From NCBI GenBank assembly GCA_030642005.1, contig DAOWOP010000002.1, forward strand, positions 1 through 40,966: DNA of 40,966 nt, written 5' to 3'. Of the stretch, positions 11,868-25,332 are shown in pieces; within the stretch, counting starts at the first letter, position 1, and each line of letters begins with the position of its first letter. The DNA comes from Planctomycetales bacterium. GTDB lineage: Bacteria; Planctomycetota; Phycisphaerae; SM23-33. Below the pieces are notes generated by a model. The model was not told the origin of the DNA, did no database searches, and saw nothing but the letters and a program-made list of their open reading frames with translations. Position numbers and translations under genes: made by a program.

Positions 11868-11901
11868 TTCTTTCCCCCGCCGCGTTTTCAAAACTTTCTT
11901 C

Positions 11902-11929
11902 TTGACATGTGTTGCACGCGCTGTACACT
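11902..11929 (+). promoter_or_regulatory. promoter P1 (TTGACA - 16 nt - TACACT) upstream of the DtxR-FeoA gene
   Basis: TTGACA at 11902-11907 and TACACT at 11924-11929. AAAACTTTC at 11890-11898 and GAACTTTC at 11942-11949 flank it. Paralogous to P2 at 15562-15589. Confidence 0.55.
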
Positions 11930-11974
11930 GTTTGAGTAGATGAACTTTCGCGGGTTTTACCGGGATTACGCTTG

Positions 11975-12685
11975 ATGGCAAAGCAGGAGCGAAAACTTAC
12001 CCGTCGGCTTGAGGATTACCTCGAAGCCGTGCTCGTTCTCGTCCGCCGAAACGGCGTTGCGCGTGTCAGCGAGATTGCCGCGGCGACCAACGTCAGCAAA
12101 TCGTCGGTAACGGCCGCACTTAAACACCTTGCCGGCAACGGGCTGGTCAATCACGACCCGTATCAGTTCGTAACGCTCACGCCCCACGGGACGGAACTGG
12201 CACAAAAGGTGCTCGATAAGCACAATCTGCTGATGTCGTTCCTGACCGACGTCATGAACATCGACCCAACCGCCGCAGAAGAAAACGCCTGCCGGATGGA
12301 GCACGTCGTCGATGATATTGTGCTGGAGCGGATGGAGATGTTGGCGACGTTCATTCAGGAATGTCCGCTGGGCGGGAAAGATTGGATGGAAAAGTTTTCA
12401 AACTATTGCCGGCAACATCCATCGGAAACATCGGAGCAATCAACCTTGAACACGACAATGGACAAGATGAAACCTGGGCAAAAAGGCAAAATTGTAAGGG
12501 TTGGCGGTAGCATCGGAGCGGCGCGTCGCCGGCTTATGGACATGGGTGTTACTCCCGGCACGCCGTTCGAGGTCGAGCGCGTCGCGCCGCTGGGCGACCC
12601 GATCGAGATACGAATTCGAAAATACCACCTGACGCTGCGTAAGGCCGAGGCCGCCGGTATCACCGTGGAACCGATGGAAGAATGA
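11975..12685 (+). CDS. DtxR/MntR-family metal-dependent transcriptional regulator with a C-terminal FeoA (SH3-like) domain
   Basis: N-terminal winged helix (LEDYLEAVLVLVRRNGVARVSEIAAATNVSKSSVTAALKHL), a dimerisation/metal-binding domain, and a C-terminal FeoA-like segment (MKPGQKGKIVRV...GVTPGTPFEVERVAPLGDPIEIRI). ATG 11975; a TTG lies at 11972. Confidence 0.85.
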   Translation: MAKQERKLTRRLEDYLEAVLVLVRRNGVARVSEIAAATNVSKSSVTAALKHLAGNGLVNHDPYQFVTLTPHGTELAQKVLDKHNLLMSFLTDVMNIDPTAAEENACRMEHVVDDIVLERMEMLATFIQECPLGGKDWMEKFSNYCRQHPSETSEQSTLNTTMDKMKPGQKGKIVRVGGSIGAARRRLMDMGVTPGTPFEVERVAPLGDPIEIRIRKYHLTLRKAEAAGITVEPMEE

Positions 12686-12936
12686 ACGACGCAAACGTCA
12701 ACCCGCTCCCGCCGATGCCGCTCACGATGGCGCTGGTGGGTCAGAGAGTTACCTTCGCGGGCGTGCGCAACGCCGGAAGAGGCCTGACGCACCGCCTGGC
12801 CGAGATGGGCCTGACGCCGGGTGAGAACCTGGAGATTCTAAATCGCGGATCCGGGCCGTTCATCGTCTCGATAAAGGGAAGCAGATTCGTCCTGGGCAGA
12901 GGAATGGTGCATCGAATACTCGTCAGACCAGGATAG
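12682..12936 (+). CDS. feoA: ferrous iron transport protein A
   Basis: 84 aa with the FeoA pattern (LTHRLAEMGLTPGENLEILNRGSGPFIVSIKGSRFVLGRGMVHRILV). The ATGA overlap with the upstream gene suggests translational coupling. Confidence 0.8.
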   Translation: MNDANVNPLPPMPLTMALVGQRVTFAGVRNAGRGLTHRLAEMGLTPGENLEILNRGSGPFIVSIKGSRFVLGRGMVHRILVRPG

Positions 12937-12946
12937 TAGTCAGTAG

Positions 12947-13106
12947 AAAAATCCGAATATCGAATGTCGAAATCCGAAACAATATCGAAATACAAATGAC
13001 TAAAATCCGAAACACAAAAAAACAGACATTCGTTTCTGTAATCTGTGTTTTGAACATTAGAAAATTCGGATTTTGAATTTGTTTCGGATTTCGATATTCG
13101 GATTTT
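12947..13106. repeat. family-2 AT-rich long hairpin element, copy 2 (inside the feoA-feoB gap)
   Basis: Left arm 12947-13025 and right arm 13043-13106 are imperfect inverted copies of about 65-80 nt. The unit structure is AATCCGAA / TATCGAA / TGTCGAA / ATCCGAAA. Confidence 0.85.
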
Positions 13107-13136
13107 ACTATCGACTCCTGTTGCAGGATATAAACC

Positions 13137-15323
13137 ATGACAGACAAGCATTTTACAATAGCCCTGGCCGGTAATCCCAACTCCGGCAAGACGACGGTCT
13201 TCAACGCCATAACCGGCGCACGCCAGCACGTGGGAAACTACCCCGGCGTAACGGTGGAGAAGAAGGCCGGCGCCGCCACCCACGGCGACGTCCGTCTGGA
13301 GGTGGTCGATCTGCCCGGCACGTACAGCCTGACGGCCTACAGCATCGAAGAAGTCGTCGCCCGAAACTTCCTGCTGAATGACAAACCCGACGTCGTCGTC
13401 GATATAGTGGATTCATCCAACCTCGAGCGCAACCTGTACCTGGCGACGCAGTTGATGGAACTGGGCGTGCCTCTGGTGTTGGCGTTCAATATGTCCGACG
13501 TAGCCGAAGGCAGGGGGTATAACATCGACGATGATAAACTGGCCGAACTGCTGGGCGTGCCGATAGTCAAGACGGTCGGACACAAGGGCAAGGGAATCAC
13601 CGAACTTCTCGATGCAGCCCTGGCTGTCGCCCGGGACGGCCAGGCCGTCGCATCACAGCGACACCCCAACTATGGCAGCGAAATCGAACCGCACCTAAAA
13701 CAACTGACAGGCCTGGTCGCCGAAAAATGCGACAAGCATCGCCCGCGATGGTTCGCCATAAAACTGCTGGAAAATGACGCCGAAACAATCAAGCGTCTCC
13801 GGCAAGCGTGCCCGCAGCACATCGAGGAATTGCTGGCCGAGGCCGAACGCCTGCGGCGCCACATCGAGAGCATCTGCGGCGATGCAGCCGAGATAATCCT
13901 CGCCGACCGGCGATACGGGTTCATCTCCGGCGCATGCACCGAAGCCGTTACCCAATCCGTCGAAGTCCGCCACGAACGGTCCGACAAAATCGACTCGGTA
14001 ATGACCAACCGCTATCTGGGCCTGCCGATATTCGCGCTGCTGATGTTCCTGGTCTTTCAGTTGACCTTTTTCATGGGCAATCCGCTGGTGGACCTGCTCG
14101 ATAGCGGAAAGGGTCTCCTGGCTGAAGCCGTTGGCGGACTGTGGGGCGAGTCGGGCGCCGACAGCGTTCTGCGAAGCCTGCTGGTCGATGGGATAATCGA
14201 AGGCGTCGGGGCCGTTATGGTCTTCACGCCACTGATAATGCTGCTTTTCCTGGCGATTGCGTTCCTTGAAGACTCCGGCTACATGGCCCGCGCAGCCTTC
14301 GTTATCGACCGCCTGATGCACAAGATAGGTCTGCACGGAAAGAGTTTCATCCCGATGCTCATCGGCTTCGGCTGCACCGTTCCGGGTATCATGGCCACGC
14401 GAACGCTGGAAACCCGCCGCGACCGCCTGACTACCATCCTCGTGCTGCCGCTGATGAGTTGCGGGGCGAGATTGCCGATTTATGTGCTCATTCTCGGTGC
14501 GTTCTTTCCCGTAAACACGGTCTTGCGGCTCTTTGGAATACTCCCCGTAACCAATCATGCGCTATGGCTGTTTCTTATCTACATTATAGGCATTGCCCTG
14601 GCGATTATCTGTGCGAAGATTTTCCGGGCAACTCTCCTCAAGGGCGAAGCCACGCCGTTCGTAATGGAACTACCCCCCTACCGCATGCCGACGCTCAAGG
14701 GCCTGGCGATCCATATGTGGGAGCGGACCTGGCTTTACATCAAAAAGGCCGGGACGATCATCCTTGCTATCGTCGTGGTTCTCTGGGCGCTTGCGTATTG
14801 GCCGAAACTGGGTGAAGAAAAACTGGTCGTCTTCGAACAGCGGCGCGCCGCCGTACAGGCCGACGCCCATCCCGACAAAGAGCAAACCGCCGAACTGCTC
14901 GCCGAAATCGACGCAGCCGAGCATGAAGCCAAACTGGAACATTCAGCAATAGGTCGGGCAGGAAAGACCATCGCACCGGTGTTCAAGCCCTGCGGATTCG
15001 ACTGGAAAATTTCCACCGCCACGATTGGAGCGTTCGCAGCCAAGGAAGTATTCGTCGGACAGATGGGCGTGCTCTATTCGGTCGGCGACGACGTTGACGA
15101 AGAATCCGTGGATCTCCGCGAAAAACTCGCCGCCAAGTACACGCCGCTGATGGGATTCTGCATCATGCTGTTCAGCCTGATAAGTATGCCGTGCATGGTA
15201 ACCGTCGCTGTTACGGTGCGCGAAGCCGGGTGGCGGTGGGCGCTGCTACAGGTAACCTACCTGACCGCCCTGGCGTGGGTGCTGACGACGATTGTCTATC
15301 AGGTCGGATCACGACTGATATAA
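13137..15323 (+). CDS. feoB: ferrous iron transporter B
   Basis: N-terminal G-domain (IALAGNPNSGKTTVFNAITG, DLPGTYSL, NMSD) followed by a polytopic membrane domain; 728 aa. AGGA lies 8 nt upstream of the ATG. Confidence 0.95.
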   Translation: MTDKHFTIALAGNPNSGKTTVFNAITGARQHVGNYPGVTVEKKAGAATHGDVRLEVVDLPGTYSLTAYSIEEVVARNFLLNDKPDVVVDIVDSSNLERNLYLATQLMELGVPLVLAFNMSDVAEGRGYNIDDDKLAELLGVPIVKTVGHKGKGITELLDAALAVARDGQAVASQRHPNYGSEIEPHLKQLTGLVAEKCDKHRPRWFAIKLLENDAETIKRLRQACPQHIEELLAEAERLRRHIESICGDAAEIILADRRYGFISGACTEAVTQSVEVRHERSDKIDSVMTNRYLGLPIFALLMFLVFQLTFFMGNPLVDLLDSGKGLLAEAVGGLWGESGADSVLRSLLVDGIIEGVGAVMVFTPLIMLLFLAIAFLEDSGYMARAAFVIDRLMHKIGLHGKSFIPMLIGFGCTVPGIMATRTLETRRDRLTTILVLPLMSCGARLPIYVLILGAFFPVNTVLRLFGILPVTNHALWLFLIYIIGIALAIICAKIFRATLLKGEATPFVMELPPYRMPTLKGLAIHMWERTWLYIKKAGTIILAIVVVLWALAYWPKLGEEKLVVFEQRRAAVQADAHPDKEQTAELLAEIDAAEHEAKLEHSAIGRAGKTIAPVFKPCGFDWKISTATIGAFAAKEVFVGQMGVLYSVGDDVDEESVDLREKLAAKYTPLMGFCIMLFSLISMPCMVTVAVTVREAGWRWALLQVTYLTALAWVLTTIVYQVGSRLI

Positions 15324-15335: not shown

Positions 15336-15497
15336 ATGTGGGAATGGGAATACGTGATAGTGGGCGTTGTTGTATTCGCAGCAGTTGCCGGTGCGGCATA
15401 TTCGCTCTACCGCAGCCTCACCGGCAAGACAAAAGGCCCCTGCGGACACTGCCCCATGAAAAATAATTGCAATTCAAACAAAGCGGACGCAACATAA
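15336..15497 (+). CDS. FeoB-associated Cys-rich membrane peptide (53 aa, below the ORF-track length cutoff)
   Basis: My own translation: MWEWEYVIVGVVVFAAVAGAAYSLYRSLTGKTKGPCGHCPMKNNCNSNKADAT. One TM helix plus a CxxC...C tail, starting 12 nt after the feoB stop. This is the typical architecture and position for the family. Confidence 0.6.
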   Translation: MWEWEYVIVGVVVFAAVAGAAYSLYRSLTGKTKGPCGHCPMKNNCNSNKADAT

Positions 15498-15561
15498 CAG
15501 CCTGATATAAAACAAGTTAGACTCGCTCGCAAAAATCCTGATAAAAAAACCAATTTTCTGC

Positions 15562-15589
15562 TTGACGAAAGTTTCTGTTTATGTACAAT
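15562..15589 (+). promoter_or_regulatory. promoter P2 (TTGACG - 16 nt - TACAAT) upstream of the 82-aa ORF and hemP
   Basis: TTGACG at 15562-15567 and TACAAT at 15584-15589. GAAAGTTTC at 15567-15575 lies in the spacer and GAAACTTTC at 15601-15609 lies downstream. Confidence 0.6.
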
Positions 15590-15632
15590 GTTAGATAGGT
15601 GAAACTTTCCAGCGTATAAGAGATTTTCAATC

Positions 15633-15881
15633 ATGGCCAAAGCGGCGTTCTTTGCTGAAGAATTGACGGTTACGGACAAGGGCGAGTTCCTTGTCATCGA
15701 AGGCGTTCGGCGTTGTCCGCATGGCCATGCCGTCGAGCAGGTGTTTATCACAGTGCCGAAAAAACTGGGGCACCTGTTCACAGAAATTCGCCGCGACGAG
15801 GAGTCCTCCGAAGCCGGGAGTCCCCAACCTCCCTCGCCCGTTGTGGCTGAACGATTGCGGAAATATTTTGGGAACAATTAA
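15633..15881 (+). CDS. hypothetical protein (82 aa)
   Basis: ORF directly upstream of hemP with a 3-nt gap. No family recognised. Confidence 0.5.
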   Translation: MAKAAFFAEELTVTDKGEFLVIEGVRRCPHGHAVEQVFITVPKKLGHLFTEIRRDEESSEAGSPQPPSPVVAERLRKYFGNN

Positions 15882-15884
15882 CCG

Positions 15885-16076
15885 ATGACAGACCGGATAC
15901 AACATGAGTCCGAACGGAATGATGCCGGCCCGGATAACGGCAAGCCCGCCGGATTGCCATCCGTCATTGACTCACAATACCTCTTCGGCCAATGCCAAGA
16001 GGTGGCCATAAGCCACAAGGGACAGATGTATCGCCTGAGGATTACACGAAACGATAAGTTGATCCTGACCAAGTAA
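15885..16076 (+). CDS. hemP: hemin uptake protein HemP
   Basis: 63 aa with the HemP family C-terminal signature: VIDSQYLFGQCQEVAISHKGQMYRLRITRNDKLILTK. Confidence 0.75.
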   Translation: MTDRIQHESERNDAGPDNGKPAGLPSVIDSQYLFGQCQEVAISHKGQMYRLRITRNDKLILTK

Positions 16077-16122
16077 CACACAACCAGACTTACTCGCAAC
16101 CCAGCCAGCAATCAGCCAGCAA

Positions 16123-16170
16123 GGGAGCGTGTGGAACGCTTTTTCGCGTCCATCCGTTCTCTTTCGCGTT
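16123..16170 (+). terminator. degenerate copy of a repeated terminator module
   Basis: GGGAGCG...GGAACGC-TTTTTC-GCGTCC...CGTTCTC, followed by TTTCGCGTTT. The outer stem needs two G-U pairs. It is about 90% identical to 18711-18757. Confidence 0.45.
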
Positions 16171-16321
16171 TGCCGGCAAAGGTGAGGCAAAGCGAAAAGG
16201 AGGTGATGAGTGATGGTTTAGATGTTTTTTTGTAAATAAAACGAAATGAAGTGAACGTATTACAAGCCATTTTGGAAACGAGCGGAGCGATTTCCGCAAA
16301 ACCGAGGAAAAGGAGAAAAAA

Positions 16322-17116
16322 ATGAACACTGCTGCAAAATTGTTACTTCTCGTCGTATTGACCGCCGTCCCGGCCGCTCAGGCTGACGCTGCGGTGAAAC
16401 TAAGTCCGGAAGCGGACAACTGGCTCAGTTCATGCCCGAACAGTTACACCGCAAACATGCACAGCGATTCCATTAAAGGCAAGCAGAACCGGGTCCGTAC
16501 GAGCAATTTCTCCTGCAGCACCGCCTATGTCCGCAACTTCCACACGTTGTTGAATTTCAATCTGAGCAGTTATTCGGACAGCAGCGAAATCATCAGCGCG
16601 AAATTGAAAATGTACTTCTACAGCGGCGATACCAGCGGCCGGACATACAACCTCCATCGCGTGACCAATTCATGGTCGGAGTCGGCTTCCTCCTGGGTGA
16701 ACCGGGACGGCAGCAGCCAATGGGATTCCATGACCGGCTGGGATAATGATCCAAATCACGTGTACCAGTACGGCGGCGGCGATTACGACGCAACCGTCGA
16801 GGCCTTCACTGTCATGCCGAGTTCCACGGACCAATGGGTGGAGTGGGACATCACCGACCTGGTCAAGGATTGGATTGACGGAACGGACAACTACGGCCTG
16901 ATTATCATGGACAGCGACGAGTTCGATGCGCCCTGGGAGACCGGGCAGGACAAGGAAGACTACATGTGCTTCTTCCGCGGCAACGAGTACGGAAGCACAG
17001 CCGAGCAGATCGCCCAGCGGCCGTATCTTGAAATCGTCCCTGAGCCGACGAGCATGACCTTACTGGGCGTCGCCGCCGCGACGATGTTGCTGCGCCGACG
17101 CAGGGCGAAGGCGTAG
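16322..17116 (+). CDS. PEP-CTERM protein with a DNRLRE-like carbohydrate-binding beta-sandwich domain
   Basis: Signal peptide MNTAAKLLLLVVLTAVPAAQADA. Domain pattern: LLNFNLSSY...ISAKLKMYFY...YNLHRVTNSWSESASSW...WVEWDITDLVKDWIDGTDNYGLIIM. C-terminus: VPEPTSMTLLGVAAATMLLRRRRAKA. AAGGAG RBS. Confidence 0.8.
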   Translation: MNTAAKLLLLVVLTAVPAAQADAAVKLSPEADNWLSSCPNSYTANMHSDSIKGKQNRVRTSNFSCSTAYVRNFHTLLNFNLSSYSDSSEIISAKLKMYFYSGDTSGRTYNLHRVTNSWSESASSWVNRDGSSQWDSMTGWDNDPNHVYQYGGGDYDATVEAFTVMPSSTDQWVEWDITDLVKDWIDGTDNYGLIIMDSDEFDAPWETGQDKEDYMCFFRGNEYGSTAEQIAQRPYLEIVPEPTSMTLLGVAAATMLLRRRRAKA

Positions 17117-17203
17117 CGCAGTTTTTCGTCGGTAATCTTGTTTTGAGGTTCTGGGCCGTCGCAAGAAGCGCCCCAAAACCTCTGTTCCGATAGGATTATT
17201 TTA

Positions 17204-17929
17204 ATGGGCATGTGTTACAAACGTGGTTTTACGCTGGTCGAACTGCCTGCAGTGAGCAAACGCAAAAGCCTCGCTTTTACGTTAGTCGAACTGCTGGTGG
17301 TTGTCGCTATTATCGCGCTGCTGGTGTCCCTCCTTCTGCCTTCGCTGTCCAGGGCGAAGGGATCGACACGGCGCGTCCTGTGCGCAGGTAATCTGAGCCA
17401 CATCGGTCTCGGGCTGATTATGTACACAGAAGAACATGACGGGTGGTATCCGGCAGCGGAAGCCTCAGGCGAGACGCCCCCGGCACATGTCAATTGGTGG
17501 CAGAACACCTCGCTTCTGCACAACTTCGGTGTTCGCCCCACACAACAGCAGGAATCCATCCTGGTCTGTCCGAGCGATGAAAATCCCGGCCAGTTTGCCA
17601 ACGGGTCGCCCAAGCCGCTGTGGACCAGTTACGCCGCCAATACTTCCTGCTTCGGTGTGGCGCGAGGCGGATCGAGGCGGCCTCGGCGAACGTCGGCCGT
17701 AAAAGTCCCCTCACAGACATTTGCCTTCGGGGATGCCTGCTGGGATCACGATGCCCCGTTGGTCCTTGGCCACCAGATATGCGTGGAAGGCCAATTCGCT
17801 TTCCGACACGATGGGATTGCGCAAATTCTCACGCCGACCCGAGAGGTCTTACAGTTTAGACCCGAAGACATCCCATACGACGGGGACGCCCCGTTCTGGG
17901 GCAATAATCCGCGATACATGACGCCTTGA
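17204..17929 (+). CDS. prepilin-type N-terminal cleavage/methylation domain protein (type II secretion pseudopilin-like)
   Basis: [31 protein letters not shown]. The start is uncertain: ATG 17204 includes a truncated second leader ([11 protein letters not shown]), while in-frame GTG 17252 gives a canonical short basic leader (MSKRKSLA|FTLVE). Confidence 0.75.
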
Positions 17930-17960
17930 ATAGTTACAGATTGTCCGAAAAAGGAATAAA

Positions 17961-18659
17961 ATGAGAAAAACAAGACTTGCAACATTGACGATTATCGCAG
18001 CCGTGGTCGCAGCCGGTTTCGTTCTGGTCCAGCCTGGCTGTACCAACCCTTCCAACGTTCAGCAAATAAGCGCAAAGACAGAGCCTTTGCGCGTCCGCAG
18101 GCCCGGCGGGAAGGTGCAGACCATCACCTTCGCACAGGCAATGGAATTCCATCACGAGCACGAAGACCACGCCGGCACGGTTACTTCGGCGACGCCGAAA
18201 AAATCATCCAAGGCCAAACCGGAAGACGATCACGATCACGACGACGGGCTTTGCATCGGCATAGCCACGGGGTACCAGGCGATACGTTATGCAGCCGGGA
18301 GGCTCTTTCCCGGCGAAACTCCAAACGCGAAGGATTTCGAACTGTCGGTGGCGGGTTCCATGCGAGGAGTTTGGGACGTCCTCGACCTCTATGCCGGCAG
18401 GAAACTCACCCGCCCCAAAACGAAACAGAAAAAGATGTCTATCGAGAGTTTTACCTTCACAGCCAGTCGCATCTCCACGGGCAAAACGCTGACGTTTCGC
18501 CTGCGAAGCGAACTGATATCAGCCGATTTCTTCACGCTGAAGAACCGGGGCGTCTCCTGCGGCGATGCCAAACTGGAGGTTCTCAAGAAACAGGCCGCCC
18601 GGAAGATTTTATCGGCCCACCCGGAAGAATGTTTCGAGTGTCTAACCCATAGGAAATAA
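17961..18659 (+). CDS. exported His/Asp-rich protein, possibly a lipoprotein, with an FmdE-like core
   Basis: Signal sequence with a Cys (AAGFVLVQPGC). His-rich stretches HHEHEDH and EDDHDHDD. DGLCIGIATGYQAIRYAA resembles the FmdE motif HGHLCPGLAxGYRA. C-terminal CFEC. Confidence 0.55.
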   Translation: MRKTRLATLTIIAAVVAAGFVLVQPGCTNPSNVQQISAKTEPLRVRRPGGKVQTITFAQAMEFHHEHEDHAGTVTSATPKKSSKAKPEDDHDHDDGLCIGIATGYQAIRYAAGRLFPGETPNAKDFELSVAGSMRGVWDVLDLYAGRKLTRPKTKQKKMSIESFTFTASRISTGKTLTFRLRSELISADFFTLKNRGVSCGDAKLEVLKKQAARKILSAHPEECFECLTHRK

Positions 18660-18717
18660 CTGAGAAAACAGGAAATCCGAAGGTCGCCCAGCCACCCAGC
18701 GAGCTAAAGGCCAGCAA

Positions 18718-18766
18718 GGGAGCGAGTGGAACGCTTTTTTCGCGTCCATCCGCTCCCTTTTTTATT
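18718..18766 (+). terminator. rho-independent terminator (repeated module, intact copy)
   Basis: Outer stem GGGAGCG (18718-18724) with CGCTCCC (18751-18757), inner stem GGAACGC with GCGTCC, followed by TTTTTTATT. Confidence 0.75.
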
Positions 18767-18787
18767 GGCCTGCCTGGAGTGCAGGCG

Positions 18788-19717
18788 ATGCAGGAAATTG
18801 AAATGACAGTCAGCACACAAAAAAACGTCGGCAGGCGCCGTGGCTGCGGTGCTTGCGGCCACATTCGGTCAGGTATGGAGGGTTTATCGTGGCCGCAAAC
18901 ACCGCGGCCACGGCACCCGGGTTTCACGCTGGTCGAATTGCTCGTGGTGGTTTCGATTATCGCTATGCTGGTGAGCATCCTTTTGCCGTCGTTGGGCAGG
19001 GCCAAGGATGCGGCAAAAGCCGTGGTGTGCCTGAATAACCAGCGGGTACTCGGCATAGCCCTGCGATACTACGCCCATGACCGCAACGGCCGACTGCCTT
19101 CGGCTGAAACGTTCTACGAGGACGCCGCACCGTATCTCGACAAGTCGCTGCCCGACAGTGTATGGGATTACAAGCGAGAAAACATGCCGCAGGCGCTGTT
19201 TTGCCCGTGCGATTCGGACCCGTTTCCCTGCCCGTACATGGGCGGAGCGTTCGAGGTAACTTCCTACCTAGTCAATGGCGCCGAGACCGACTACGCGATG
19301 GGTGGAGGGACGCGAATCGCACTGGGATTGTTCGGCGGCAAGGGAAATATCGACGAGCCGATCTGTGCAGCCGAGTGCATGTTAATCGGCGAGGCAACCA
19401 ATTACTGCAAGATTGCCGACCTGGACCACCCCGCCGCCCAGGCCGCCTTTAGCGCCGCCGGAGCGGACCTGGGCGGATCGCGAAGGCGTTTCCATCACCG
19501 CGCCACCAGCGGATTTTTCCACAACGGCAGGATGAACGTCTATTTCGCCGATGGGCACGGCTCGGCGGTAAGAGGCAAAACGGTGGACCCCCTGCCCGTC
19601 AGCGACTGGCCCAGCGGGGCGCTGATGGATAAGACCACAGCCTTCTACCCGACGCTCTCGCTGCCGATGGCGACGGAAAACCCGGACTTCTGGGGCCCGC
19701 CGTATGACAGTTGGTAA
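18788..19717 (+). CDS. prepilin-type N-terminal cleavage/methylation domain protein with an H-X9-DG motif
   Basis: [33 protein letters not shown], and C-terminal HNGRMNVYFADGHG (H-X9-DG). Start uncertain: ATG 18788 has GGAG 8 nt upstream; GTG 18779, ATG 18803 and ATG 18875 are alternatives. Confidence 0.8.
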   Translation: MQEIEMTVSTQKNVGRRRGCGACGHIRSGMEGLSWPQTPRPRHPGFTLVELLVVVSIIAMLVSILLPSLGRAKDAAKAVVCLNNQRVLGIALRYYAHDRNGRLPSAETFYEDAAPYLDKSLPDSVWDYKRENMPQALFCPCDSDPFPCPYMGGAFEVTSYLVNGAETDYAMGGGTRIALGLFGGKGNIDEPICAAECMLIGEATNYCKIADLDHPAAQAAFSAAGADLGGSRRRFHHRATSGFFHNGRMNVYFADGHGSAVRGKTVDPLPVSDWPSGALMDKTTAFYPTLSLPMATENPDFWGPPYDSW

Positions 19718-19730
19718 CCGGGTGTAAAAA

Positions 19731-20327
19731 ATGGACGATTCGGACAGGAAAAAATTACTGACAGCAGCAGGCGTTTCGCTTCTCGCGGCGGTAACGATCG
19801 GGGCGATGCTGGGCCTTGCCGCCGGAGCGTGGCGGGTCGGCTTCGGGTGGCTGGCGCTTCCGGTGGGCCTGGCGGCGGGCGTTCCGTTGCGGCTATTCGG
19901 TATGCATCGCCATCGCGCGACATTCCTGGCTGCGCTGCTGTGTACGGGAGCGGGGTTGGCCGCACACATCGGCGTCCGCCGGCTGGCCAAACCGGAGTGG
20001 ACGGCAAAGCAGCAGGTTGGCGACGAAAAACTGGATGAACTATCCCGCGAGGTGCTCGCGCTGCAAATGTGCTGCGAGCAGAAGATTATGGGAGTGTGGG
20101 ACTACGACGGCGTCCCGCAGGAGATAAAGGACGAAGCCGACGGGCGCGTCAAAGCAATGTCGGAAAAGGAAAAACTCGCACTGTGCGACGAGACCTTCGC
20201 CCGGCGGATTAACACCCCCGCAGGCGGGGGTGGTCGGGGCAGAGGCTTCATTGCCCAGGCCGGCTGGGCGGTACTGTCCGGTGTGCTGGCAATTGCGCCG
20301 CTGGCGCTGAAAAACCGGTATGAATGA
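19731..20327 (+). CDS. hypothetical membrane protein (3-4 TM helices)
   Basis: 198-aa ORF with N-terminal TM helices, a charged central segment and a C-terminal TM helix. No family recognised. Confidence 0.5.
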   Translation: MDDSDRKKLLTAAGVSLLAAVTIGAMLGLAAGAWRVGFGWLALPVGLAAGVPLRLFGMHRHRATFLAALLCTGAGLAAHIGVRRLAKPEWTAKQQVGDEKLDELSREVLALQMCCEQKIMGVWDYDGVPQEIKDEADGRVKAMSEKEKLALCDETFARRINTPAGGGGRGRGFIAQAGWAVLSGVLAIAPLALKNRYE

Positions 20328-20473
20328 GAACCGAAAGGAGGTGATTGAAAATGTAACATCAAACGGAGAAAACGGAGCAGATGTAGATGTATGACCAGCC
20401 AGACGGTCTTCAAAGCCGATCCAGCCAAAAACCTTTGGTGGCTTTTCAGAAGCCACAATGAGGAGAGAATGAT

Positions 20474-21250
20474 ATGAAGTATGCAACGAAGATTTTGTTG
20501 ACAGTATTGGTTCTTGCGCTGGCCGGTTCGACCGCTGTGGCGGATTTCGGCTATCGCGACAAATTCGCTCCCGGCTGGGAGTCGGCGACCGGCTACACGG
20601 TCCAGGACTGGGGACTGCATGATCTCGGTTGGGACCCTGTGGAGGAAGAATGGATTGGGCCCGGCCAGCCGCTACCGGCGGACAACGGGTACACCAATTC
20701 TTACGGAACGCCTACGTGTGTCTGGGATACTCAGACTCCGCAAGGCTATTACGGCTGGAATGGCGGCCCCCCTATGCCTCCGGGAACACATCCTGCCTGG
20801 GCGGATGATACCTGGGGCGGCATGATTCAAATGAGCGGTGACGGTTCCGCTGCGTTAACTGCTACGGTAAATCCCGGTGCCGAGAACGGTGTGCTGAGAA
20901 TCTGGGTCGAATACGACTGGTTCGCAAGCGGGAACGTGTCAGCCGGCATCGCCGGCGCGACGGATATCACGCCGGCCACCTATTACAATCACCAGCTCGG
21001 TACCGGCGGATCGAGCGGGAGTCCATGGTACCGGACCATCAAGGTCTTTGAGTTCACCGAGAATCCGGACACGCCGTTCAACGTGGTGTTCACCGCGACG
21101 GGTTTTGCGCCGATGATGGACTCGTTCGAGATCAGCACGGCTATCGGCGCAGCCGTTCCGCCGGATATGCCGGTTCCAGAGCCGGCGACGATGGTCCTGT
21201 TGGGTCTCGGCGGCGTCGGTGTACTGATGAGGCGAAGACGCAGAGGCTAA
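20474..21250 (+). CDS. PEP-CTERM sorting domain-containing secreted protein
   Basis: Signal peptide MKYATKILLTVLVLALAGSTAVA. C-terminus VPEPATMVLLGLGGVGVLMRRRRRG. GGAG lies 8 nt upstream of the ATG. Confidence 0.8.
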   Translation: MKYATKILLTVLVLALAGSTAVADFGYRDKFAPGWESATGYTVQDWGLHDLGWDPVEEEWIGPGQPLPADNGYTNSYGTPTCVWDTQTPQGYYGWNGGPPMPPGTHPAWADDTWGGMIQMSGDGSAALTATVNPGAENGVLRIWVEYDWFASGNVSAGIAGATDITPATYYNHQLGTGGSSGSPWYRTIKVFEFTENPDTPFNVVFTATGFAPMMDSFEISTAIGAAVPPDMPVPEPATMVLLGLGGVGVLMRRRRRG

Positions 21251-21257
21251 AAAAAAG

Positions 21258-21342
21258 TCGGGTGCCATGCTTTCACGCGAAGCGGGTAAGCATGTCCGCT
21301 ACATTTACATGCCCATCCCTTCGGGAAGGGCATGGCACCCGA
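21258..21342 (-). terminator. large hairpin plus U8 tract, oriented for minus-strand transcription
   Basis: Perfect 13-bp stem, TCGGGTGCCATGC (21258-21270) with GCATGGCACCCGA (21330-21342). The A8 run at 21249-21256 reads as U8 after the hairpin on the minus strand. No T-run follows on the plus strand. Confidence 0.45.
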
Positions 21343-21468
21343 TAGTAACGCTGTTAATGTACAAATGTGAATGTGTGTGCAAGTTGTGCGTAAGTCAGGC
21401 AGAGAAGCCCGAAGGCCGATCCACCCAGCCCATTCGCTCCTTGCTCGGCTAATTGAATGGAGAAAACA

Positions 21469-22161
21469 ATGGGTATCAAAAGTAGTATCGTTGTAGCAAT
21501 GCTGTTGGTTGTTTTGTCGGCTGGTTCGGTTGCCAGGGCCGATTTTACACTGAATGTTGACGAGGTGTTTTACTCGGCAATGGGCGGCGGACCGTTCGTT
21601 AAAAACTATGTCCTGACCTGTAATACAGGGGCCGGTGAAGCATGGGAAAGCATGGCGTTTCTGAAGTTCGACCTGACGGACCTGCCGAGCGCGCCGGTTC
21701 CGTCAGCCTGGTTGAGCCTCGAGAACATCCCGCCGGCAGGCGGAATGACGCTGACGCAGCCGTCGGAGGATGAGCCTGTGAAGATTTCCGTCCAGACCGT
21801 TACCGAAGACGTCTCGAAGATCACATCAGGCCAGATCGGCGTCTCGGATTTCCAGGACAATTATATCGGCGATGAGATAGACACTGCCGAGATAACAGTC
21901 AACGGGTTCTACTACTGGGACGTTACCGAACTGGTGAACGCCTGGATCGGCGGGGCGGATAATTACGGCTTCGCGCTGACGGGTCGGTACGACGACGATT
22001 TTGACCCGTGGCTCTGGCCTCATTTCGCCGGTAAGCCCAACGCCGCCTGGCCCGACAGCCTCGGGGCAGAACCTGTCATTGCCAACGTGCCGCTTCCCGA
22101 ACCGGCTTCCGCAGTATTATTGTTGTCGGGCGGCGTGCTGGCGATGTTCCGGCGACGGTAA
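21469..22161 (+). CDS. PEP-CTERM-like protein with a DNRLRE-like domain
   Basis: Signal peptide MGIKSSIVVAMLLVVLSAGSVARA (ATG 21469 has GGAG 7 nt upstream; ATG 21457 is an alternative). Domain pattern: AFLKFDLTDLP...AWLSLENI...YWDVTELVNAWIGGADNYGFALTG. C-terminus: LPEPASAVLLLSGGVLAMFRRR. Confidence 0.75.
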   Translation: MGIKSSIVVAMLLVVLSAGSVARADFTLNVDEVFYSAMGGGPFVKNYVLTCNTGAGEAWESMAFLKFDLTDLPSAPVPSAWLSLENIPPAGGMTLTQPSEDEPVKISVQTVTEDVSKITSGQIGVSDFQDNYIGDEIDTAEITVNGFYYWDVTELVNAWIGGADNYGFALTGRYDDDFDPWLWPHFAGKPNAAWPDSLGAEPVIANVPLPEPASAVLLLSGGVLAMFRRR

Positions 22162-22189
22162 AGATATGTCTTTGTCAGAGAAAAACATG

Positions 22190-22240
22190 GCGAAACGGCA
22201 AGCCGTGGGGTTTGCCGTTTCGCGGTATTTTCGGTTTTTT
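22190..22240 (+). terminator. rho-independent terminator
   Basis: Perfect 12-bp stem, GCGAAACGGCAA (22190-22201) with TTGCCGTTTCGC (22212-22223), followed by GGTATTTTCGGTTTTTT. Confidence 0.8.
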
Positions 22241-22274
22241 CGTAGTAATACAGAAACATTGAAAGGAAGAGATC

Positions 22275-23231
22275 ATGAAAAGGTTTTACAGGCAGTTGTT
22301 GATCGGGTTGGTTCTTTCGGTTGTCCTGGCCGGTGCGGTCGGGTACGGAACAAACAATGCTCCAGCCATTACTGAAAATACCACGCCGACCGCTATGTCC
22401 GACGGTTCCGCCGGGCTGCTGGTTATCGCGCACGGCGCACCGATGCCGGCGTGGAACAAACCCGTCCTGGCATTGGAGAAACAGGTCGTCAAGGCGCTTG
22501 GGCCGAACAGCCCGTTCAAAAAGGTCAAGGTCGTCCTGATGGAGTTTGTGAAACCCTCGGTAGCCGACGGCGTCGCCGAGATGGAACGGGCCGGTTGCAG
22601 CCGGATCGTGGCCGTACCACTGCTGATCGCGCCGTCGAGCCATTCGCACTGGGACATTCCCGCCTTGCTGGGGCTTTACAGCGACGAGAAGATGAAGGCC
22701 GAACTTGCCGAAGAAGGCGCGACTATCGTCAAAAGCAAACTGCCCATAACCGTTACGGCTACGCTCGACAGCGGCGAGTTGCTCGTTGAGACGATGCTGG
22801 CGCGGGTGAAGGAACTGTCGAAGAACCCCGCCGAGGAGGCCGTGATCGTGCTGGCCCACGGCGACGACGGGCTGAAACCCTACTGGGACGCCTTGATGAA
22901 GCGTATCACGTACAACATCTGCGGGAAGACGGGCATCACCCATGCCGACTGGGCGTACGTCCACGTCGGGCAAGGGTATCGGTCCGGCGGCGTCCCGGCT
23001 ATTATGGCAGCGGCAGAGAATAGGAAGCGAGTGCTGCTGGTGGGATGCTACGTCTCAATGGGAGCGGCGGGGATGCACAAGCGGTTCATGAACCGCCCGA
23101 CGCGAATCCACGGAATGGCGCTGCCGAACCCCCTCAAAGGCAAGGACATCGTCGCGGCCAAACATGGCCTGCTGCCAAGCCCCGGCGCAGCCGAATGGAT
23201 CGCAAAAACCGCTAAAGCGGCGTTACGCTAA
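22275..23231 (+). CDS. CbiX/SirB-family (class II) chelatase-like protein with an N-terminal signal/anchor sequence
   Basis: Two CbiX-like halves (LLVIAHGAP...AVPLLIAPSSHSHWDIPALLG and VIVLAHGDDG...), preceded by a hydrophobic N-terminus (MKRFYRQLLIGLVLSVVLAGAVG). AAGGAAG RBS. Confidence 0.6.
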   Translation: MKRFYRQLLIGLVLSVVLAGAVGYGTNNAPAITENTTPTAMSDGSAGLLVIAHGAPMPAWNKPVLALEKQVVKALGPNSPFKKVKVVLMEFVKPSVADGVAEMERAGCSRIVAVPLLIAPSSHSHWDIPALLGLYSDEKMKAELAEEGATIVKSKLPITVTATLDSGELLVETMLARVKELSKNPAEEAVIVLAHGDDGLKPYWDALMKRITYNICGKTGITHADWAYVHVGQGYRSGGVPAIMAAAENRKRVLLVGCYVSMGAAGMHKRFMNRPTRIHGMALPNPLKGKDIVAAKHGLLPSPGAAEWIAKTAKAALR

Positions 23232-23267
23232 AGAACTGATTACAAAATAATTGCAAGGAGATTTTTA

Positions 23268-23828
23268 ATGAGCAAAGTTGGATTGTTTTATGGAAGCACA
23301 ACGGGAAATACAAAGAATGTGGCCGAGATGGTCCGGAACGAACTCGGCGCCGACAACGTTGACCTGCACGATGTCGCCGGGGCCGGTCCGGCTGACGTCG
23401 GCGGATACGGTATTCTCATTCTCGGCGTTTCCACGTGGGGACTTGGTGATCTTCAGGATGATTGGGAGGCGTTTGCTTCGAGCCTGAAGAGTTTGGACGG
23501 AAGGAAGGTAGCCCTGTTCGGTCTGGGCGATCAGCAGGCATATCCCGACACCTTCGTCAATGCCATGGGCACACTGTATGAAAAGGCCACCGAAGCCGGA
23601 GCCGACGTAGTAGGGGCCTGGCCGACAGACGGGTATGACTTCGGCGACTCGACGGCAGTCGTTAACTACGAGTTTGTGGGGCTGGCCTTGGACGAAGACA
23701 GACAACCTGACATGACGGCGGGGCGCGTGAAGGCGTGGGTCAATCAACTCAAGGTCGAACTGGGTTTGCAGACCGAGACTGAAATGTCGGATGAAACGTT
23801 ACAGCCACCGATGGGAGGCCGGATATGA
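23268..23828 (+). CDS. fldA: long-chain flavodoxin
   Basis: MSKVGLFYGSTTGNTKNVAEMV (FMN phosphate-binding loop), ILGVSTWGLGDLQDDW and FVGLALDEDRQPDMT. AAGGAG RBS. Confidence 0.9.
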   Translation: MSKVGLFYGSTTGNTKNVAEMVRNELGADNVDLHDVAGAGPADVGGYGILILGVSTWGLGDLQDDWEAFASSLKSLDGRKVALFGLGDQQAYPDTFVNAMGTLYEKATEAGADVVGAWPTDGYDFGDSTAVVNYEFVGLALDEDRQPDMTAGRVKAWVNQLKVELGLQTETEMSDETLQPPMGGRI

Positions 23829-24241
23829 TAGGAAAAGCCGAGGAACTTCAGACACCTGATACGGCGGCCATGGCGGTCTTCTGCCATCACGTCTATGAAT
23901 ACCGCAAGGGTCTGCGGAACCTTATCCTTCATACCTGCCGGAGGGAATGCAAGAAGCAAATCATCAGGAAACTCCGTCGGGGACGGATTGCCTATTTCAT
24001 CTTTCCGGTCGGTACAGAGAAGATGAACGTATTTTTCGGTGATCCGTCCTGTATCGAGGTCATTCGCAGTATAGGCAAGAGAGACTTATCGGCCTACAGC
24101 GACGAAGAGGATTTCATCCTTGGGACCATGCTCGGATATTGCCCCCGCAAGCAGTGCATACGGTACCTGCAGCGAAAGAGTTCCGCCCGTGAACATGGTG
24201 ACAAAGAGACTCAATGTCCCCGCAGGTTTCAGGTAGCCTGA
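23825..24241 (+). CDS. DUF2023-like protein (flavodoxin-associated)
   Basis: ATGA overlap with fldA. VFCHHVYEYRKGLRNLILHT matches, from memory, the DUF2023 core found next to flavodoxin genes in Bacteroidota/Chlorobiota. Confidence 0.5.
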   Translation: MIGKAEELQTPDTAAMAVFCHHVYEYRKGLRNLILHTCRRECKKQIIRKLRRGRIAYFIFPVGTEKMNVFFGDPSCIEVIRSIGKRDLSAYSDEEDFILGTMLGYCPRKQCIRYLQRKSSAREHGDKETQCPRRFQVA

Positions 24242-24359
24242 TGAACCTTTTGGCAACAGCCAGGACATCTCGGCCCGCCAAGGCCGCGAGGATCGTCCCG
24301 GATGCCGCTGACGCCGCCGGGGCGCCGGCGGCCGGTTCGCCTGGCCTGTGCCGAGGGCG

Positions 24360-24533
24360 CTACGCACCGGCCGAGATGGCGTTGACGGGGCACTCGGACT
24401 CGCACACGCCACAGTCTGTGCATTTCTCGGGGTCGATGATGAATTTGTCGTCGCCCTCGGTGATTGCATCGACGGGGCAGACCGGCACACAAGCGCCGCA
24501 CTTCGTACATTCGTCGGAGATTGTGTATGCCAT
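24360..24533 (-). CDS. 2x[4Fe-4S] ferredoxin (57 aa)
   Basis: MAYTISDECTKCGACVPVCPVDAI...CTDCGVCESECPVNAI: two CxxCxxCxxxCP motifs. Internal ATG 24533 with AAGGAG upstream. Confidence 0.85.
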   Translation of the reverse strand: MAYTISDECTKCGACVPVCPVDAITEGDDKFIIDPEKCTDCGVCESECPVNAISAGA

Positions 24534-24650
24534 TTCATTGCTCCTTATCTTGTACAAACATGGCTTGCATTACGCTGGCGACCACTCTATTTATTATTGG
24601 CAGACAAACCTATTGATGTCCACGCAATAACGCGGCCAGGGCAAAAAGGT

Positions 24651-25223
24651 ATGAAGACCAAATATAAACAACGGCGTCGCGACGTCGCTCAATCGCGGGC
24701 CGACGACGCTCCGGTGGGCAAGGATCACAAGGACGCAGCACAAAAGGACGCTATCACCCATGAGGCATGGAAGGTCTTTGAGGCCTACCTCAAGAACAAC
24801 GGCGACCGTCTCACCGAGGCCAGGCGGATTATCCTTCGGCAGGTATTCGAGCGGCACGATCATTTTCGAGCGGACGAGTTGGCGGCGGACCTTGTCGGGG
24901 GCGTCAACCGCGTCAGCCGGGGTACGGTGTACCGAACACTGGCGTTGATGGTTCAAGCCGGACTGGTCCGGGAATTGCGAGATTCGGACGTTCACGTTCA
25001 CTACGAGCACGTCTTCGGCCACGAACATCACGAACACCTCATCTGCAACGAATGTGGGCGGTTCGTCGAGTTTCAGGATCAGGATGTCGAGGTTCGTTTG
25101 ATGGACGTCTGCCGCAAAAAGGGATTCCGCCCAACCAGTCACAGGGTCGTCGTATTCGGAACGTGTATGGAATGTCAGGCAAAGGCAAAGCCTACTACTG
25201 TTATTATGAAAAAAACCTCGTAA
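24651..25223 (+). CDS. fur: Fur family transcriptional regulator
   Basis: Internal ATG 24651 of ORF 24348..25223. LTEARRIILRQVF...FRADELAADL...VSRGTVYRTLALMVQAGLVREL, an HEHHEH metal site, and CNECG...CMEC structural zinc cysteines. Confidence 0.85.
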   Translation: MKTKYKQRRRDVAQSRADDAPVGKDHKDAAQKDAITHEAWKVFEAYLKNNGDRLTEARRIILRQVFERHDHFRADELAADLVGGVNRVSRGTVYRTLALMVQAGLVRELRDSDVHVHYEHVFGHEHHEHLICNECGRFVEFQDQDVEVRLMDVCRKKGFRPTSHRVVVFGTCMECQAKAKPTTVIMKKTS

Positions 25224-25332
25224 GATTATATTAGGGATATGGCGGAACGACGGTGTAGGCTAATCAGGTGAATGGATCGCGGTGTAATTTCCGAGGCGGA
25301 TGTTCGAACCGGCGTGATGCGCCCGATTTCCG

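Follow-up and report, generated by a model that had tools for sequence, protein, structure and literature searches.

A hemP-led envelope module beside feoAB: a candidate new route to haem iron in an uncultured, anaerobic planctomycete

What does hemP serve where no haem receptor is found behind it? The question was raised by a metagenome contig of a Planctomycetales bacterium (DAOWOP010000002.1, 40,966 nucleotides, about 41 kb; "the window" below is this whole stretch), in which hemP stands next to feoA and feoB and is followed by a structured leader RNA and by genes for PEP-CTERM surface proteins, pseudopilin-like proteins and an FmdE-like lipoprotein. The best explanation, to which a probability of about 45% was given, is an iron-starvation envelope module that is repressed by metal, gated by HemP and placed in the slot of the haem receptor, and that probably takes the iron out of haem while still outside the cytoplasm, for import by FeoAB. 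As judged from sequence, the module is a credible candidate for a new type of haem-iron uptake. We know of no described counterpart of the gene set under this leader among iron or haem uptake systems.

Little is understood of iron acquisition in Planctomycetota and other anaerobes in which TonB-dependent receptors are few. HemP and FmdE are widespread, as are the pseudopilin-like proteins, of which planctomycetes have very large families; for none of the three is a mechanism established, and the locus joins them in one regulated unit.

Gene content and conservation of the locus

Genes were called from the list of open reading frames (ORFs) together with Pfam and NCBIfam scans. Each gene that the earlier note had placed behind hemP, all on the plus strand, was recovered at its position. 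The genes from the hemP promoter to the CbiX-like gene are as follows.

15633–15881, plus strand: small ORF of 82 aa with a CPHGH motif, between the promoter and hemP; no Pfam or NCBIfam family
15885–16076, plus strand: hemP (PF10636, 66.3 bits against a cut-off of 25)
16322–17116, plus strand: DNRLRE/CBM96-like beta-sandwich protein with signal peptide and PEP-CTERM anchor (NF033679, 88.6 bits; PF07589, 22.9 bits)
17204–17929, plus strand: pseudopilin-like protein 1 (N_methyl, 36.5 bits)
17961–18659, plus strand: FmdE-like lipoprotein rich in His, Asp and Glu (lipobox LVQPG/C; Pfam FmdE, 22.8 bits against a cut-off of 22.9)
18779–19717, plus strand: pseudopilin-like protein 2, start codon at 18779 or 18788 (uncertain) (N_methyl, 30 bits; H-X9-DG-H motif)
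19731–20327, plus strand: membrane protein of 198 aa; no Pfam or NCBIfam family
20474–21250, plus strand: PEP-CTERM protein (PF07589 and TIGR02595 above their cut-offs)
21457–22161, plus strand: DNRLRE/PEP-CTERM protein (TIGR02595, 17.1 bits against a cut-off of 16)
22190–22223, plus strand: intrinsic terminator, 15-bp stem followed by a U-run (–33.4 kcal/mol, z = –6.9)
22275–23231, plus strand: CbiX-like protein of class II chelatase fold with an N-terminal hydrophobic helix (PF01903, 51.8 bits)

Among the scanned ORFs of the window (several larger ORFs were not covered) there was no TonB-dependent receptor, in agreement with the earlier note, no haem ABC transporter and no match to an exosortase; receptor and transporter are both present in the proteobacterial loci used for comparison. 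Strong hairpins with U-runs were found 3' of hemP, of the FmdE-like gene and of position 22161, and a further strong hairpin 3' of 21250. Since hairpins with U-runs stand inside it, the block is not one uninterrupted operon.

Related loci (numbered with L) were taken from genomes and metagenomes, the relatives being metagenome-assembled genomes labelled Planctomycetales, Planctomycetota or Anaerohalosphaeraceae, and the window proteins were mapped onto each. In 18 distinct loci, over which the identity of the FmdE-like protein falls from 82% to 29%, one orthologous pseudopilin family is encoded directly upstream of the FmdE-like gene; in some, the only gene between the two is a second paralogue of a PEP-CTERM family that we call NWAD from a motif at its N terminus. 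Every locus with enough upstream sequence has a PEP-CTERM gene and hemP ahead of this pair. The dtxR-feoAB genes are adjacent in 13 of the loci, upstream in most; in L010 and L011 feoA-feoB come directly downstream of the FmdE-like gene, and L016/L017 carry the hemP, PEP-CTERM, pseudopilin and FmdE-like genes without feo. The order is kept down to 29% protein identity and 42% GC (L018). The gene arrangement is not due to chance.

What is widely conserved is the pseudopilin 1 family, the FmdE-like lipoprotein and the PEP-CTERM slot, and to this extent the block of the earlier note stands as a conserved unit; pseudopilin 2 and the 198-aa protein belong to one lineage only, and L003 stops straight after the FmdE-like gene. 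The CbiX-like gene, which the earlier note had set after the block, is better counted with the module; it directly follows it in L140 and L142.

At the DNA level, 81–86% identity to the closest relatives spans feoA through the hemP promoter, as far as 15608, and then 15942–16207, where the 3' end of hemP and leader copy 1 lie; the segment 15609–15941 has no DNA match in them. Identity breaks at about 16208–17948, resumes over 17949–20544 (FmdE-like gene, second leader, pseudopilin 2 and membrane protein), breaks again over 20545–22130, apart from the PEP-CTERM tail, and is back at about 22131–23221 (CbiX-like gene). Both breaks are PEP-CTERM segments. Between close relatives, one PEP-CTERM gene stands in for another that is not homologous to it, and in the window the first such gene and pseudopilin 1 appear to have been exchanged as a pair.

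The flanking genes, identified by Pfam, are listed below.

11972–12685, plus strand: dtxR-feoA fusion (DtxR-family repressor and FeoA)
12682–12936, plus strand: feoA
13137–15323, plus strand: feoB
15336–15497, plus strand: FeoB-associated Cys-rich membrane protein
23268–23828, plus strand: flavodoxin
between flavodoxin and fur: DUF2023 and, on the minus strand, ferredoxin
24651–25223, plus strand: fur
ending at 26205, plus strand: ZIP transporter

The stretch 23222–26216 has no DNA match in the close relatives, and the flavodoxin-DUF2023-ferredoxin-Fur-ZIP block is lacking at this position in L140 and L142. In both, a prephenate dehydrogenase gene comes within about 1.3 kb of the CbiX-like gene, directly next to it in L140 and with one aminotransferase gene in between in L142. 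The flavodoxin-to-ZIP block, fur included, is thus an insertion specific to the window. The sandwich between feoAB and fur on which the earlier note relied is real in the window; when its synteny was followed into the relatives, the linkage to hemP and feo was kept and that to fur was lost. The locus appears to grow by the addition of iron-related cassettes. In L140 a Mn exporter gene adjoins dtxR. The feoA-feoB intergenic region of the window (12935–13119) is a long AT-rich nested inverted repeat of ATCCGAAA/TTTCGGAT units (arms of 37–38 nt, 82–84% complementary), which is unusual within a feo operon.

Leader RNA and promoters

The leader occurs twice in the window, and the first copy is followed by a Shine-Dalgarno sequence and a mini-ORF.

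16091–16171, plus strand: leader copy 1, boxes ACCCAGCCAGC and GCCAGCAAGG at 16099–16124 (model R1, 73.0 bits; –27.7 kcal/mol, z = –3.8)
16199–16221, plus strand: strong Shine-Dalgarno sequence GGAGGTG and mini-ORF ATG GTT TAG (16213–16221), read from the sequence
18686–18767, plus strand: leader copy 2, boxes at 18694–18719 (R1, 77.3 bits; –34.6 kcal/mol, z = –5.7)

The stretch behind hemP is strikingly alike in all loci; its consensus of about 80 nt reads (GCA)ACCCAGCnAGC-N5-6-GCCAGCnAGGGAGC, hairpin, GCUCCCU and U-run, and contains two CCAGCnAG boxes. In copy 1 the second box overlaps the 5' arm of the terminator hairpin, and a weak U-run follows. Copy 2, positioned 3' of the FmdE-like gene, has the same boxes and a canonical terminator ending in UUUUUU; a second copy is found at the same place in L004, L140 and L142. 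Over aligned stretches of about 100 nt the two window copies have 72 invariant columns in common.

A pattern scan of metagenomes gave 120 stretches, mostly coding sequence or CCAGCC simple repeats, which were separated by a covariance model (R1) built from 18 sequences. In the covariation alignment, 29 matches (28 distinct sequences) scored 51–84 bits, cleanly apart from chance hits; with the copies of L140–L142 the total is 32 in 29 distinct loci. Across the 29 aligned matches, 87.5% of the cells of a 13-pair hairpin are paired (75.9% in shuffles), the upper stem varying in sequence among loci yet remaining paired. The covariation score of 0.422 was reached in none of 500 shuffles (0.230 shuffled), and with the 3' partners shifted by 1–3 columns it was at most 0.156. 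In all 27 testable loci hemP lies at most 1.5 kb upstream of the first leader copy (directly adjacent in 24), and a shorter variant in high-GC contigs is likewise 3' of hemP. A cmscan of 15400–22400 against Rfam 15 at E ≤ 1 returned three weak unrelated hits and left the leader without a family. The regulatory logic of hemP and boxes is a variant of a known one; the leader with its terminator is absent from Rfam.

The terminator stem shares its first paired bases with the second box. A protein sitting on the boxes could therefore keep the stem from forming, and we infer that HemP is this protein and that it prevents termination. A switch made of RNA alone was also considered and set aside: no alternative antiterminator pairing was found, and the small box-box pairs that were predicted never vary and are uninformative either way.

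After the first leader, a strong Shine-Dalgarno sequence AAGGAGGTG and, about 9 nt on, a mini-ORF (ATG-stop, MV*, MA* or 4 codons) were found in 11 loci (the window, L005, L007, L008, L009, L010, L015, L016, L115, L140 and L142), all with an NWAD- or DNRLRE-type cassette. The mini-ORF may serve ribosome loading or translational coupling. A similar Shine-Dalgarno sequence with ATG-TAA lies at about 20336–20353, ahead of the gene at 20474.

The promoters of hemP and of the feo genes were compared.

15562–15589, plus strand: module promoter TTGACG-16-TACAAT, sigma-70-like, from the promoter scan
15568–15591 (minus strand) and 15585–15608 (plus strand): two inverted operator-like sites on the module promoter, outer arms GAAAGTTTC and GAAACTTTC
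11902–11948, plus strand: promoter of dtxR-feoA-feoB, TTGACA-16-TACACT, with an operator-like site ACACTGTT-N10-AACTTT at 11925–11948

In alignment A2, which takes both promoter classes from four genomes (the window, L003, L005 and L016), GTT, ACAnTGTT and AACnT are invariant and keep their spacing. The pattern ACANTGTT-N10-AACNTT is found in the window at the feo and hemP promoters only (0.07 expected), a count that is partly circular because the window's own sequences are in the source alignment. In more distant loci, dtxR and hemP are both preceded by clear DtxR-type palindromes (AAAGTTAGGCnTGCCTAACT form; 28.6 and 22.8 bits in L010; 19.7 bits in L016, which was outside the training of the matrix). 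The motif GAAASTTTC, present in the window at the hemP promoter only, was rejected as operator, not being kept beyond the closest relatives.

It is probable that one metal-dependent repressor controls both promoters. The operator of the window has diverged from the DtxR-type consensus, and co-regulation is therefore something that we infer. The earlier note had assigned the block to the iron-starvation response; the operator architecture common with the feo promoter and the hemP-associated leader argue for this, and a function in uptake is suggested by the gene context. It had also put hemP behind its own promoter: the sigma-70-like promoter is there, with the 82-aa ORF in between. Homologues of this ORF precede hemP in L007 and L099, and the closest relatives lack it. 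At 11747–11873, immediately before the dtxR promoter, lies an inverted repeat of 36 nt (arms 92% complementary and 55 nt from each other); as similar sequence was found by blastn at unrelated positions in L140 and L003, it is a dispersed palindromic element.

Proteins of the module and genes behind the cassette elsewhere

The FmdE-like lipoprotein is the conserved heart of the module. Its family comprises 27 clusters among 5.8 billion proteins, and a HMMER scan of 1.84 billion representatives with its profile gave 68 matches. C27 (of the lipobox), H64, E68, C98 and M134 are invariant and H67 nearly so. The motif AM-x-(W/F)-H-H-x-H-E is followed by a variable stretch rich in His, Asp and Glu (residues 71–93, disordered in the AlphaFold2 model, which has a pLDDT of 82) and by L-C98-x-G-x-x-x-G-Y-Q-A-I-R; M134 comes 36 residues after C98. 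A sequence search of the PDB with the profile gave nothing meaningful, and the fold search alone pointed, weakly, to FmdE: the best and sole meaningful PDB match of the model in Foldseek was FmdE 2gvi (probability 0.94, TM 0.35–0.40). One family member, P0020, has a precomputed Pfam FmdE match, and the profile reaches proteins at 50–94 bits, tying the lipoprotein to bona fide FmdE proteins and to fusions with CbiX.

In solved FmdE structures, Zn/Ni is held by His15, His17 and Cys19 of FHGHxC and by Cys55, 36 residues after Cys19, and most members of PF02663 adjoin metal transporters (PMC2954224). The statement of the earlier note that no middle gene had a known role in metal uptake was thus too strong, the FmdE family having a published proposed link to metal transport (PMC2954224). 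The canonical FHGHxC plus Cys55 site is not present in the window protein, which has the invariant Met134 at the Cys55 position; it looks like an exported FmdE derivative with a putative modified site (His, His, Cys, Met) and an acidic His-rich loop.

Remote homologues of the FmdE-like protein are often large and extracytoplasmic; in these, CbiX and FmdE domains occur together with the wall-anchoring domains SLH, dockerin or Cu_amine_oxidN1, or with NosD or ZinT. In two, a tetrapyrrole methylase is part of the protein. P0209, which is 44% identical to the window CbiX-like protein, has at its C terminus an FmdE domain that matches the window FmdE-like family (hhalign, 95%). Five further remote FmdE-like homologues (P0041, P0044, P0046, P0049 and P0052) are exported, begin in mature form with His (AxA/H-x-P) and have a beta-rich domain of about 100 aa in front of a single FmdE-like domain or a pair of them; a His at the N terminus is typical of certain metal-binding sites.

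The CbiX-like protein of the window has the features of a class II chelatase (CbiX/SirB): the Pfam match, the His pair and the two-domain fold. Both catalytic His align to those of CfbA, and H53, E90, H123 and H195 are invariant across 27 homologues. The AlphaFold2 model (pLDDT 88) has the two-domain class II chelatase fold, and structure searches gave SirB as best match (E = 7e-9, TM 0.72 on target), with ferrochelatase and periplasmic CbiK (2xvx) matched too. A hydrophobic helix at residues 2–22 is followed by a disordered linker in the model, and the protein is predicted to be exported, the helix being a putative signal or anchor. The setting of a biosynthetic CbiX/SirB, cytoplasmic and near sirohaem, B12 or F430 genes, does not apply: export is predicted from the sequence, and no tetrapyrrole biosynthesis genes were found near the gene.

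Both pseudopilins are of the prepilin type (PF07963, 36.5 and 30.0 bits; TIGR02532 above its cut-off). They scored 27.6 and 33.8 bits with the GspG equivalog (cut-off 88.85), and no secretion-system assembly genes were found near them. Pseudopilin 1 is 29–35% identical to its positional orthologues, which carry an H-X9-D-S/G-H motif; weak DUF1559 (SBP_bac_10) matches were seen in the window pseudopilin and in these orthologues. In pseudopilin 2, which is 76–81% identical in L004, L140 and L142, the H-X9-DG motif HNGRMNVYFADGH is legible, and TIGR04294 is not among the NCBIfam matches listed at E ≤ 0.1. The 198-aa membrane protein falls into 6 clusters in 5.8 billion proteins, all at least 74% identical. 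To our knowledge, the pairing of a pseudopilin with an FmdE-like lipoprotein has no prior description.

The 5' coding part of pseudopilin 2 contains a GC-rich perfect-stem hairpin of about 80 nt (18834–18917; –59.8 kcal/mol, z = –5.8; weak spurious Rfam isrG match) that extends the prepilin leader peptide in frame, is present in L142 and absent from L004 and L140, and looks like an inserted palindromic element. A near-perfect hairpin of 90 nt separates the two downstream PEP-CTERM genes (21255–21345; –51.9 kcal/mol, z = –7.9).

All three PEP-CTERM proteins of the module have the PEP motif, the transmembrane helix and the basic tail; the product of 16322–17116, too, exceeds the cut-offs of both PF07589 and TIGR02595. 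The slot after hemP is held in all other loci by the conserved NWAD family, which has no Pfam domain, and in the window by an unrelated DNRLRE-type protein. The product of 20474–21250 was tried as an NWAD orthologue and discarded, since only its C-terminal anchor region aligns. The second NWAD paralogue between the pseudopilin and FmdE-like genes, with a dockerin-like tail instead of PEP-CTERM, was seen in L016 (4602–5555), L009, L010, L011, L018 and L115; the L018 cassette also has an RCC1-repeat PEP-CTERM protein.

Membership of HemP in its family was judged by the gathering score of PF10636 and the conserved C-terminal segment YRLRxTxxxKLILTK; the window protein belongs to it and aligns to 2jra, 2loj and 4ynx of the PDB (HemP/YdiE family). 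In alphaproteobacterial replicons of PLSDB, hemP lies beside a divergently transcribed TonB-dependent haem receptor gene. The receptor leaders next to hemP carry GCCAGCCAG...GCCAGCCAG in Methylocystis (GCCAGCCAGG-N-GAGCCAGCCAG) and Chelatococcus (GCCAGCCAGCC-N-GCAGCCAGCCAG) and one box in Phyllobacterium. The same boxes were read in receptor leaders of L145 and L146. The covariance model gave no match on the proteobacterial hemP loci, so the likeness to their leaders lies in the boxes alone. Amarelle et al. (in Biometals, 2019) are said to have described HmuP-responsive elements with conserved CCAGCC-type boxes upstream of shmR-type receptors, and we provisionally take the window boxes to be such elements. 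If this identification holds, the planctomycete leader would be a variant of a known cis-element joined to a terminator, and the genes behind it would occupy the regulatory slot of the haem receptor.

The hemP gene and its leader were found ahead of the following genes in other metagenome contigs.

L060, L074, L087, L032, L099 and L115: NWAD, pseudopilin and FmdE-like set
L047 and L103/L133: pseudopilin gene
L034 and L101: CbiX-like, flavodoxin and DUF2023; on the short L055 contig, CbiX-like only
L084: flavodoxin and DUF2023
L039: porin-like barrel with an FMN-binding protein
L088: outer-membrane barrels
L029: membrane protein, ExbB/MotA-like protein and CobN-family protein

The CbiX-like gene is thus the first behind the leader in L034, L101 and L055. 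The CobN-family protein of L029 matched the haem dechelatase HmuS (9d26) at E = 1e-166 (559 bits, against about 173 bits for ChlH/CobN) and is by this comparison a HmuS orthologue. HmuS strips iron from haem anaerobically, and FeoB imports the Fe2+ (PMC12583661). The hemP-leader regulon mixes envelope proteins, chelatase-fold proteins and the iron-sparing flavodoxin, which fits iron starvation with a haem component.

Readings of the locus and comparison with known systems

In the mechanism that is proposed, low iron would allow transcription from 15562–15589 by relieving a repressor common with feo, for which the DtxR-FeoA fusion is a likely candidate. The transcript would carry HemP first and then the leader of about 80 nt with its two CCAGCnAG boxes; HemP on the boxes would stop termination, and the first cassette (PEP-CTERM, pseudopilin-like protein and FmdE-like lipoprotein) would be expressed. 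The second leader copy would open the second cassette, that of pseudopilin 2, the membrane protein and the PEP-CTERM proteins. Control by HemP may, as a candidate extension, reach the CbiX-like gene of the window, which is set off by another strong terminator. Capture of the iron source, haem or another metalloporphyrin being the most likely, would be the task of the surface proteins, pseudopilins and FmdE-like lipoprotein; removal of the iron would fall to the exported protein of class II chelatase fold, and Fe2+ would enter via FeoAB. Haem or a metalloporphyrin is favoured because of the ancestry of hemP and the boxes, the HmuS operon behind the same leader and the fusions of the FmdE-like domain to tetrapyrrole enzymes. 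A more sweeping version was also formulated, in which anaerobic Planctomycetota have a haem/iron route independent of TonB receptors, made up of exosortase-anchored surface proteins, a periplasmic pseudopilin-like component, an FmdE-like lipoprotein that binds metal or porphyrin, an exported class II chelatase running in reverse and FeoAB, with HemP as antiterminator on an uncatalogued leader, the counterpart of the HmuP-responsive element; this is put forward tentatively and is rather unlikely to be right.

Several observations weigh against the haem-stripping module. The PEP-CTERM proteins are glycan-binding-like (DNRLRE/CBM96) and are swapped between close relatives, unlike a conserved receptor. 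The His-rich loops and the Zn/Ni site of FmdE fit nickel, zinc or free Fe2+ as well as haem, and haem binding by the module proteins is putative. In pseudopilin 1, the D and H of the orthologues' H-X9-D-x-H motif are replaced. HmuP/HemP has been described as an activator or co-activator; a role as RNA-binding antiterminator is a proposal made here. When the window was scored with a DtxR weight matrix, the hemP promoter site ranked first at 9.8 bits, but the median best hit of shuffled sequence was 10.3 bits; the assignment of the operator is therefore drawn from conservation and not from a match to the known consensus. Finally, L013 and L015 have no CbiX-like gene less than 10 kb from their FmdE-like gene, and in the window the terminator at 22190–22223 parts the CbiX-like gene from the module.

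The same regulation could serve the uptake of a free divalent metal, with the FmdE-like protein as a periplasmic chaperone that concentrates Fe2+ (or Ni, Zn or Mn), hands it to FeoB and is anchored or positioned by the pseudopilin, with the CbiX-like protein as merely another metal-binding protein and with HemP as a general iron-starvation regulator that has no link to haem. This account is a serious alternative, though a less likely one. It is favoured by the tight placement of the module beside feoAB, with feoA-feoB right after the FmdE-like gene in L010 and L011, by the binding of Zn/Ni by FmdE proteins and their adjacency to metal-ion transporters (PMC2954224), and by remote homologues in which the fusion partner is ZinT or a domain whose first residue past the signal peptide is His. 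The Mn exporter beside dtxR in L140, the ZIP transporter of the window and the anaerobic habit of the carriers, whose usual iron source is soluble Fe2+, point the same way. What it leaves unexplained are the recurrent fusions of the FmdE-like domain to tetrapyrrole enzymes (CbiX, TP_methylase), the HmuS haem dechelatase behind the same hemP-leader cassette and the likeness of the boxes to those of proteobacterial haem-receptor leaders; strict conservation of both catalytic His residues in the chelatase fold also speaks against it.

Remodelling of the surface under iron starvation, for adhesion, aggregation or attachment to iron particles or polysaccharide, with the FmdE-like and CbiX-like proteins as passengers, would not involve uptake at all. 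In its favour, DNRLRE/CBM96 and disaggregatase-like domains belong to the carbohydrate-binding modules, exosortase cargo of the PEP-CTERM kind is tied to exopolysaccharide (the PepA flocculation protein is among the weak NCBIfam matches), and PEP-CTERM genes are hypervariable, are exchanged as cassettes and are frequent in this genome, another lying at 9431–10573. Against this, the pseudopilin/FmdE-like pair is invariant over the 18 loci while the surface proteins vary, so that the conserved partner is the lipoprotein with the metal-binding fold; the set lies behind hemP and its leader and beside feoAB, and the other genes behind the same cassette are for transport or iron sparing. Remodelling is accordingly held to be unlikely. 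That abundant planctomycete surface-protein genes merely happen to sit in an iron island is very improbable: PEP-CTERM and prepilin-type genes are indeed very numerous in these phyla, and fur, flavodoxin and ZIP adjoin the module only in the window, but an accident is contradicted by the synteny kept to the most distant locus (L018), by a leader that is conserved and duplicated within the locus and by the promoter architecture common with the feo operon.

For the haem-stripping module, the two boxes with the terminator form a cis-element that allows the mode of action of HemP to be tested directly in vitro. FmdE-like and CbiX folds are paired repeatedly outside the cytoplasm, which points to extracytoplasmic metal-porphyrin chemistry, parallel to the HmuS pathway of gut Bacteroidota. 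If confirmed, the module would add a new type of haem-iron harvesting for anoxic habitats; the more sweeping version, if true, would give first mechanistic roles to the FmdE family, the H-X9-DG pseudopilin families and HemP.

Among known systems, the proteobacterial hemP/hmuP loci (hemP-hemR-hemSTUV; hmuPSTUV with shmR) resemble the window in the small HemP-family gene at the head, the iron-responsive control and the two GCCAGCnAG-type boxes in the leader (Methylocystis and Chelatococcus; one in Phyllobacterium). They control a TonB-dependent receptor and a haem ABC transporter, whereas the leader-controlled genes of the window are neither; in the phylum of the window the boxes abut a covarying intrinsic terminator, and the covariance model is silent on the proteobacterial leaders.

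The FmdE family (PF02663; 2glz, 2gvi and 3d00) has in common with the window lipoprotein a conserved Cys followed by G-x-x-x-G-(Y/F) and a metal transporter gene nearby, and its alpha+beta core fold is weakly matched by the model. The window protein differs in being an exported lipoprotein, in a disordered His/Asp-rich insertion of about 30 residues that splits FHGHxC, in the Met at the position of the fourth ligand (Cys55), in lacking the C-terminal zinc finger and in scoring just under the Pfam cut-off. The window pseudopilins have the cleavage-methylation motif and the hydrophobic N-terminal helix (PF07963) of type II secretion pseudopilins and of the planctomycete DUF1559 and H-X9-DG families, and an H-X9-D(G/S)-H motif is legible in pseudopilin 2 and in the positional orthologues of pseudopilin 1; unlike the type II secretion proteins, the window pseudopilins have no assembly genes nearby and score far under the GspG cut-off.

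A class II chelatase fold outside the cytoplasm, as predicted for the window protein, is known from Porphyromonas gingivalis IhtB and from the periplasmic CbiK of Desulfovibrio vulgaris. IhtB is a haem-binding surface lipoprotein, homologous to CbiK, and a proposed reverse ferrochelatase (PMC12094164). The window protein is closest in fold to SirB and CfbA (TM 0.72 and 0.87 on target), and the IhtB system includes the TonB-dependent IhtA and an ABC transporter, neither of which is in the gene context of the window; dechelation by IhtB is itself only proposed.

The Hmu system of Bacteroidota (HmuY-HmuR-HmuS-TUV) differs from the window in having HmuS (class I, more than 1400 aa), the HmuR receptor and the HmuY hemophore, where the window has a 318-aa class II protein of the CbiX/SirB type. 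The likeness is in anaerobic removal of iron from intact haem by a chelatase fold with entry of Fe2+ through FeoB (PMC12583661), a role that is proposed for the window, and the relative L029 has its HmuS orthologue directly behind the same hemP-leader cassette.

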